This document shows, one piece after another, positions 51,200 to 52,213 of a DNA stretch of 64,000 bases. Numbering within the stretch: position 1 is the stretch's first letter; each line of letters starts with the position of its first letter. The stretch is from Eledone cirrhosa (Eukaryota). Under the pieces are notes generated by a model that was not told where the DNA came from, did no database searches, and saw only the letters and a program-made list of their open reading frames with translations. Position numbers and translations under genes: made by a program. The stretch covers positions 157,542,001 through 157,606,000 of the forward strand of contig OZ024740.1 of the NCBI GenBank assembly GCA_964016885.1. Direction: 5' to 3'.

Positions 51200-51200
<1 letters not shown>

Positions 51201-51313
51201 GTTGAAATAAAATGAAAACGAAATTTCATTTCTCACTCTTAGTATGGCACTTACTTAAATGTAAGTATGTATGTATACGTACATACATATATGTATACAG
51301 ACGTACAGTAGCA

Positions 51314-51389
<76 letters not shown>

Positions 51390-51627
51390 GGTACACATAC
51401 ATATATGCACGCATCAGTTTAGCGGACGCTTATTATAACGCCGCTTTGTTCGTTTGTAAACAAACTGAACAGCCTGAATTTATGCCATACGGTGTTAAGG
51501 CAACCACGTCACCTTTTTGTTCAACACTGACACAGGAACGATGTACTAGTTTCAAGCTTGTTAGCTATCATCAGCACCGTAATAAGCGTCCGCTAAACTG
51601 ATGCGTGCATATATGTATGTGTACCTG

Positions 51628-51681
<54 letters not shown>

Positions 51682-52114
51682 TCCTACTGTACGCCTGTAT
51701 ACATATATGTATGTACGTATACATACATACTTACATTTAAGTAAGTGCCATACTAAGAGTGAGAAATGAAATTTCGTTTTCATTTTATTTCAACTTATCG
51801 TTTTCGGTATGCCTGACCGATTTAACTCACTCAATATGCAAATTAAGCTGCTCAGCCGTTAATTTTCATAAGGAAAGTATATACTTTCGAACGTTCAACT
51901 ATCTGGCAGATGGGTATACGGTGCTGATGATAGCTAACAAGCTTGAAACTAGTACATCGTTCCTGTGTCAGTGTTGAACAAAAAGGTGACGTGGTTGCCT
52001 TAACACCGTATGGCATAAATTCAGGCTGTTCAGTTTGTTTACAAACGAACAAAGCGGCGTTATAGTAAGCGTCCGCTAAACTGATGCGTGCATATATGTA
52101 TGTGTACCTGTATG

Positions 52115-52156
<42 letters not shown>

Positions 52157-52213
52157 TGTTACTGTACGGCTGTATACATATATGTATGTACGTATACATA
52201 CATACTTACATTT
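51200..52213 (+). mobile_element. Family B retrozyme-like locus: inverted partial copy plus ~1.3 head-to-tail monomers
   Basis: 51200-51580 inverted; TAAGCGTCCGCTAAACTG recurs at 51583 and 52066 (period 483). Confidence 0.85.
51918..51960 (+). ncRNA. Minimal type I hammerhead ribozyme (mirror copy on minus strand at 51538-51580)
   Basis: ACGGTG-CTGATGA-TAGCT(AACA)AGCTT-GAAA-CTAG-TA-CATCGT. Confidence 0.9.

Follow-up and report, generated by a model that had tools for sequence, protein, structure and literature searches.

The repeat family that we call B, present in three copies in the window (the whole stretch of 64,000 nucleotides of Eledone cirrhosa DNA analysed here), is very probably a non-LTR retrozyme, a non-coding element that works as a non-autonomous Penelope-like element (PLE) with a helper acting in trans. 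Elements of this class are already known; what is new here is the presence of the PLE signature, a tail together with an inversion, at the insertion junctions of the retrozyme itself, and this pattern is, on the evidence of the sequence, the most diagnostic feature of the family. B is young and counts tens of thousands of copies. In the mechanism that we propose, the repeat of ~420-520 nt would spread by means of the RT and endonuclease of a (TA)n-targeting PLE supplied in trans: tandem source loci would be transcribed, the PLE protein would nick both strands of a (TA)n tract, and reverse transcription would begin inside the RNA at two sites, a separate one for each strand, giving one tailed and one untailed arm. 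Copying would pass through the ribozyme junction, so that the template would not be a linear RNA beginning at the cleavage site.

The 51-kb insertion and the other copies in the window

The 51-kb locus is one composite insertion into a (TA)n tract, in which a minus arm and a plus arm are joined 5'-to-5' and share 2 nt (TA, 51580-51581). The (TA)n tract on its left flank (51166-51199) would represent the target. The inverted arm (51197-51581, minus) is 5'-truncated and equivalent to 51917 onward: it corresponds to 51917-52213 followed by an extension of 59 nt, by which it outreaches the plus arm along the monomer. The extension is a PLE-type tail (51197-51255, minus), copied from 51740-51798 and absent from the forward end. 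The forward arm (51580-52213, plus), also 5'-truncated, has an untailed end, ...CTTACATTT, followed by TA-rich sequence. It contains an internal (TA)n tract with flanking low-complexity palindromes, predicted to form long hairpins (51630-51739, plus), in which the position of the untailed 3' ends falls at 51736-51739, and the internal copy of the tail segment, a hairpin (51740-51798, plus), in which the second fixed 3' end position falls at 51795-51798. The type I hammerhead of the forward arm occupies 51918-51960 (plus), with predicted cleavage after A51954; an identical one is found in the inverted arm at 51538-51580 (minus), with predicted cleavage after 51544.

A previous reading of the sequence alone had described 51583-52213 as a direct repeat preceded by an inverted partial copy. 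The inverted copy was located as the minus arm described above, with its second hammerhead inside, and the period of 483 was recovered (51583 to 52066); however, the direct repeat amounts to only 1.3 monomers with one hammerhead, and its duplicated stretch measures 157 vs 148 nt. The 26-kb copy (26288-26739, minus), one monomer long and of an older subfamily, shows about 85% identity to the 51-kb monomer; it is tailed and placed within (TA)n, and its hammerhead lies at 26554-26596 (minus, core start 26590), with predicted cleavage after 26560. This copy had been read as one monomer with terminal redundancy. The redundancy is real, but it is a ~25-nt overlap between the 5' truncation (equivalent to 51773) and the 3' tail, and the 13 redundant nucleotides were rejected as a target-site duplication. 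The third copy (40984-41075, minus) is a short 3'-terminal fragment, tailed, without a hammerhead, and also within (TA)n. Since neither the 51-kb nor the 26-kb locus has two hammerheads of the same sense, neither could free a monomer by itself, and the release of monomers proposed earlier does not apply to the window's own loci. No credible ORF is present, as already noted in that reading: the open frames measure 40-68 aa and are chiefly microsatellite-derived. A search of the whole window against Rfam at the gathering score gave zero matches.

Hammerhead-like motifs were also observed in other repeat families, at 46760-46815 (plus), 47150-47215 (minus) and 47047 (plus); the pair near 46.8 and 47.2 kb would seem to be related copies facing opposite ways. 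A short inverted-repeat element lying in (TA)n was seen at 47345-47585, where TAACCC repeats occupy its centre, and at two loci elsewhere in the genome (L048:1870-2390 and L142), in both of which it directly adjoins the 5' end of a family-B copy.

The genomic family and its hammerhead

The 31-nt hammerhead core has 24,001 exact matches in the 3.0-Gb genome (1796 contigs), compared with 0 for the reversed control; therefore, the repeat at 51 and 26 kb is not due to chance. When helix II was left free, 39,854 matches were obtained, and the surplus over the exact core includes a sister family, B'. With ~40,000 related cores, this is a sizeable cephalopod repeat, from which structured RNA might arise in abundance. 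The 40 best-scored copies of the 51-kb monomer share 96-100% identity with it and lie on many contigs, and the five natural monomers that were folded measure 424-519 nt, with a GC content of 0.32-0.38. The first 100 exact matches listed on one contig (C1) correspond to 59 loci; no strand bears more than one core in 45 of them, and 14 have from two to six cores on the same strand; all 11 loci with cores on both strands are arranged 5'-to-5'. The sample taken from the genome comprised 213 core-centred copies, 170 of B and 43 of B'; 135 of the B copies are full-length, and 119 belong to four subfamilies having at least two loci each.

The B' unit, of 466 nt, is 55-63% identical to B and colinear with it over an aligned core of 330 nt, comprising tail, upstream region, ribozyme and downstream region. 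It has the same two classes of ends, at the same two places. One array of this family has 31 units over 14 kb (contig C1:5738100-5752750, L136, L137) and is bounded by PLE-type ends, with an untailed end on one side and an inverted tailed arm on the other. Further B' loci are L101 and L126-L135, and the family shows compensatory hammerhead stems. Units belonging to one insertion, inverted arms included, are closer to each other than copies from different loci (0.75% vs 2.0%; 0.94% vs 2.9%).

In the forward hammerhead of the window, helix I pairs 51918-51923 with 51955-51960, the core CUGAUGA lies at 51924-51930, helix II at 51931-51944 with a basal U-U, GAAA at 51945-51948, and the palindromic helix III, ACUAGU, at 51948-51953; the full core spans 51924-51954. 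The B hammerhead is thus built of a helix I of 6 bp, to which an internal loop and a 3-bp extension are added, a 4-5-bp helix II, and a 2-bp helix III closed by a palindromic loop. These are canonical type I dimensions, not those of the long-helix-II 'min-HHR' of Cervera 2014, and the label of minimal HHR given by the sequence-only reading had to be dropped. In the min-HHR of metazoan PLEs, helix II has ~6-8 bp, helix I is short (4-5 bp) and there is no real helix III, whereas the B build matches the canonical metazoan type I as described in the same source (PMC4209133). The basal U-U and the 2-bp helix III resemble the axolotl HHR_Amex2 as described in PMC7229834. By analogy with the hammerheads presented in these two sources, it is plausible that the B hammerhead would be active in a dimeric form; on the other side, only one out of nine predicted Xenopus retrozyme dimers is reported to have cleaved (10.64898/2026.07.22.740005).

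It had been proposed that the ribozyme is under selection, and this holds between source subfamilies. Comparing the majority letters of the four B subfamilies, 4 of 43 columns are variable in the hammerhead vs 64 of 243 in the flanks (p=0.018), a comparison partly biased by the sampling, as the copies were gathered with the core pattern and the exact-core search was the origin of two of the four subfamilies. With this bias, the hammerhead varies less between these subfamilies than its flanks do; blocks of flank as invariant as the ribozyme do exist (e.g., 51792-51808 and 51960-51982). The four variable hammerhead columns are all tolerated, namely N7, loop II and both sides of one pair of helix I (G-U, A-U, U-G). 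On the other hand, private substitutions of single copies are barely lower in the hammerhead (0.006 vs 0.010, p=0.057), which indicates that most of the constraint acts in the source lineages. As to the two window loci, the three hammerhead differences previously reported were found again (51921 G/A, 51928 T/C and 51938 C/T, 51-kb vs 26-kb copy); the alignment suggested as a check gave 3/43 substitutions in the hammerhead vs 44/275 in the flanks, a difference that is not significant (Fisher p=0.16).

Pairing was evaluated on 13 hand-picked distinct variants of the B and B' hammerheads: 96% of the cells pair, compared with 32-51% in slid controls, and 7 of 16 pairs show changes on both sides, most of them from the single split between B and B'. 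When folded in isolation and without constraints, the 53-nt hammerhead gave z-scores of -0.17 and -1.26, which are not significant. The five natural monomers, folded as circles, are predicted to be 66-71% paired, and the hammerhead helices could be forced at a cost of 1.5-4.8 kcal/mol; the z-scores of the circular folds, -10 to -15, derive from only 12 shuffles each and are inflated by TA and microsatellite palindromes.

An additional conserved element, ATGCAAAT, is located at 51836-51843, ~80 nt upstream of the hammerhead, and is kept in both B and B', with a variant in one subfamily. We take this sequence to be the octamer motif of snRNA promoters. Since it varies in that subfamily and falls in a predicted stem, it may have a structural rather than a promoter role.

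Insertion junctions and the template for reverse transcription

The junctions were surveyed in 89 non-redundant loci. Tailed 3' ends number 69, and 66 of them fall at 51789-51798; TA-rich sequence follows in 60 of the 69, as a raw count. The untailed ends scored, 62 in all, are mostly at the equivalent of 51736-51739 and are followed by TA. Hence, B has two fixed 3' end positions, ~59 nt apart. By contrast, the 94 5' ends are scattered over 51747-52064, where the monomer is unique, and do not depart significantly from a uniform distribution (KS p=0.18); the copies obtained by the search with full-length DNA contributed 5' ends mainly through their second arms. Among 33 pairs of outward-facing ends, one tail was found in 28, two tails in none, and no tail was scored in 5 (p=7e-5); two of these 5 look as if they had variant tails. 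It has been reported that PLE insertions comprise tandems, an inverted 5'-truncated arm and a tail at one end (PMC8557442), and that in vitro the PLE nicks and extends both target strands, the tail being the stretch between two internal RT start sites (PMC11167929). Judging from these junctions, family B is likely integrated by a PLE protein in trans. The earlier suggestion of a retrozyme-like non-coding monomer mobilised in trans is thus backed by copy number, hammerhead constraint, junction anatomy, tails and the lack of an ORF; the tails and the inversion pattern had not been named in that reading.

As regards the template, 5' ends do not accumulate at the cleavage site, where 5 of the 94 lie and 3.25 are expected. 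Genome-wide, 19 matches (14 loci) have their 5' end at the cleavage site; a control site lying 14 nt downstream, with a motif common to more subfamilies, has 41 (34 loci). Moreover, every core-intact copy was copied across the cleavage junction. The lack of enrichment and the copying through the junction, taken together, rule out the cleaved linear monomer as the main template. The template is either a circle or an uncleaved multimer, which the genome data cannot separate; we lean slightly towards a circular monomer released by the hammerhead and ligated by the host, and give somewhat less than an even chance to an uncleaved multimeric transcript. Family B makes this question testable, as a ribozyme-made circle and an uncleaved multimer can be set against each other.

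A serious competitor, which we nevertheless consider rather less probable than its negation, is the same non-autonomous PLE-type element copied from uncleaved linear multimers of tandem source loci, with no circle involved. It departs from our preferred explanation in the template only, with the additions that the arrays would grow later by unequal exchange and that the hammerhead would have another role, e.g., the trimming of read-through transcripts. In its favour, among ten loci with at least three units, partly shared variants occur in three, and in the 31-unit B' array variants recur as a mosaic. It has also been described that in PLE insertion in vitro cleavage is dispensable and RNA left unprocessed serves as the main substrate (PMC11167929), and unequal crossover has been invoked for retrozyme arrays (10.64898/2026.07.22.740005). 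Conversely, the other seven loci have only variants shared by all units or limited to one, and the difference between units of the 31-unit array does not rise with their distance. Furthermore, the arrays examined retain PLE-type ends, the inverted arms at two loci (L123, L124) carry the private variants of their own array, and circles of retrozymes are on record for coral, mussel and axolotl (PMC7229834). In one of the three loci with partly shared variants (L143), two variants take turns along the four tandem units (ABAB), which implies a dimeric template or the later duplication of a dimer.

The retrozyme explanation can be carried one step further, in a form that we regard as speculative and rather unlikely as a whole. 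The copies of B and B' would record rolling-circle reverse transcription of one hammerhead-generated circle by a borrowed PLE enzyme, with both nicked strands of the (TA)n target priming at two fixed sites, up to 31 units made per event, and the RNA recognised by its structure, with no sequence shared with the helper. If this were true, the loci would give direct evidence, read at the junctions, for the circRNA-template model of tandems in retrozymes and PLEs, and this in a host group of phylum rank for which circRNA-template tandems are not known to have been described. The sequencing runs listed as matching the monomer included no RNA runs; the contigs of four of the six listed runs, compared with the monomer, gave no match in two cases and only subfamily variants in the other two, and have no bearing on expression.

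Candidate helpers and the relation to known elements

The window itself carries a broken autonomous PLE, 5'-truncated, at 11436-13955 (plus; RVT_1 E=6e-4), with a 3' fragment near 56008-56600. A relative has a GIY-YIG-like C-terminus in a frame of 1304 aa. At first look, the family has 31,285 candidates in the genome, among them many long open frames; it is flanked by (TA)n and has a tail of its own, of 55 nt, and the best homologue of its protein is from Octopus vulgaris (68% identity). It is very abundant and recently active, and has an Asn-rich N-terminal region; an atypical hammerhead-like motif was observed in the window copy at 13736, with helices I and III not clearly formed. The PLEs found here are presumably 'Neptune-like', an assignment made from the Cys-rich linker. 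A survey with GIY-YIG, covering 70 of 150 scored matches out of 10,597 candidates, grouped the 70 loci into 8 clusters. The window family, with its RT and GIY-YIG, and these 8 clusters are the candidate helpers. No sequence common to B and the window family was found, nhmmer gave no match between the monomer and 71 PLE 3' regions in this partial survey, and no PLE hammerhead of the 8 clusters has a B-like flank. A distant PLE protein, used as query for an autonomous partner, returned the same window family and no B-bearing PLE.

Some candidates were discarded. Four loci with RT nearby (L274, L279, L048 and L027) are not B-bearing PLEs, as TA tracts or other repeats intervene, and the 25 nt by which the tail resembles one PLE cluster's 3' end (E=0.15) lie upstream of the apparent ends of that family. 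Relaxed hammerhead patterns gave 317 matches in the genome, mostly indel variants of B, vs 18 in the controls; they include many single diverged motifs with the same palindromic helix III, non-B flanks and no PLE protein match nearby. Out of 60 loci with relaxed patterns, 4 have PLE protein matches, which are separate neighbours at the loci inspected (all but L251 and L270).

Some PLEs have hammerheads of their own. In one cluster (L151-L178, e.g., L152 and L171), the hammerhead lies ~430-500 nt past the endonuclease domain and shows the core variant U3-A8, with ACCGGU as its palindromic helix III. Another hammerhead, with a basal U-U and a palindromic helix III, is found in the window at 33095-33135 (minus), and its motif recurs in another PLE cluster (L180, L214, L215 and L218), 350-410 nt past the GIY-YIG domain.

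The B copies could also be thought of as the 5'-truncated ends (pLTRs) of a rare autonomous PLE escaping our sampling, an outcome that the sequence-only reading had itself named as fatal to its proposal and that we deem improbable. PLE copies are mostly 5'-truncated, the survey of PLEs was partial, and two of the 8 clusters have hammerheads similar in build, with basal U-U and palindromic helix III. However, the 94 5' ends have no foreign upstream sequence in common, being adjoined by TA tracts, an inverted arm or unrelated flank, and the tandem units follow each other directly. In the 89 loci no ORF was found in or contiguous with the monomers, nor an RT and GIY-YIG ORF between pLTRs; PLE protein matches occur in only 4 of them and each is a separate neighbour. 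In addition, the colinearity of B and B' extends over the place expected for the ORF. Finally, a satellite or MITE-like DNA repeat, spreading at the DNA level and bearing an incidental hammerhead-like motif, is superficially suggested by the tandem arrays, by inverted arms similar to terminal inverted repeats and by the absence of Rfam matches, but is most improbable in view of the fixed 3' and scattered 5' ends with one-sided tails, a polarity that already contradicts it, of the 98-100% identity dispersed over many contigs and of the compensatory hammerhead stems.

As a non-LTR retrozyme, family B shares with the elements described by Cervera and de la Pena 2020 (PMC7229834) and by Li et al. 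2026 (10.64898/2026.07.22.740005) non-coding tandems of low GC (32-38%), units with a single type I hammerhead each, copies in the thousands ranging from monomers to multimers, a highly paired predicted circle and co-existing PLEs. The units of B and B', of 420-520 nt, are at the long end of the range, compared with 150-450 bp in PMC7229834, while a range of 51-972 is given in 10.64898/2026.07.22.740005. Further differences are the (TA)n tract within the unit, the cephalopod host and the fact that B is known here from genomic sequence alone. Cephalopod hosts are not mentioned in the searched text of either source, and that of the second has 0 matches for 'tail' and no mention of the signature of tail and inversion. 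More generally, no description of cephalopod retrozymes or of tails on retrozymes was found in the literature searched, which did not extend to Repbase and Dfam; the supplement of PMC4209133 may list cephalopod hammerheads, and that of 10.64898/2026.07.22.740005 names the four invertebrates sampled there. In the portion consulted of the O. vulgaris repeat annotation (PMC13282606), neither ribozyme nor retrozyme is mentioned. According to these sources, mobilisation of animal retrozymes by PLEs has so far been inferred from common hammerheads, co-occurrence and pLTR homology, the latter, with an autonomous PLE of the same genome, concerning 21 of 57 Xenopus families or fewer (Li et al. 2026).

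Compared with EN+ PLEs, their pLTRs and non-autonomous Chlamys elements such as MRC1, as presented in PMC8557442, PMC4209133 and PMC11167929, B has in common partial tandems, an arm that is inverted and 5'-truncated, a tail that may be present at one end, targets in microsatellites and a hammerhead near the 3' end. It differs in having no ORF, a tail of ~59 nt (~66 in B') instead of 30-40, a hammerhead of canonical type instead of min-HHR, and no sequence in common with the PLEs sampled from this genome. The LTR retrozymes of plants, as summarised in PMC7229834, are likewise non-autonomous retroelements with hammerheads, but theirs are of type III and are accompanied by LTRs, PBS/PPT and 4-bp TSDs, whereas B consists of head-to-tail units with a type I hammerhead, in which the open helix is helix I.
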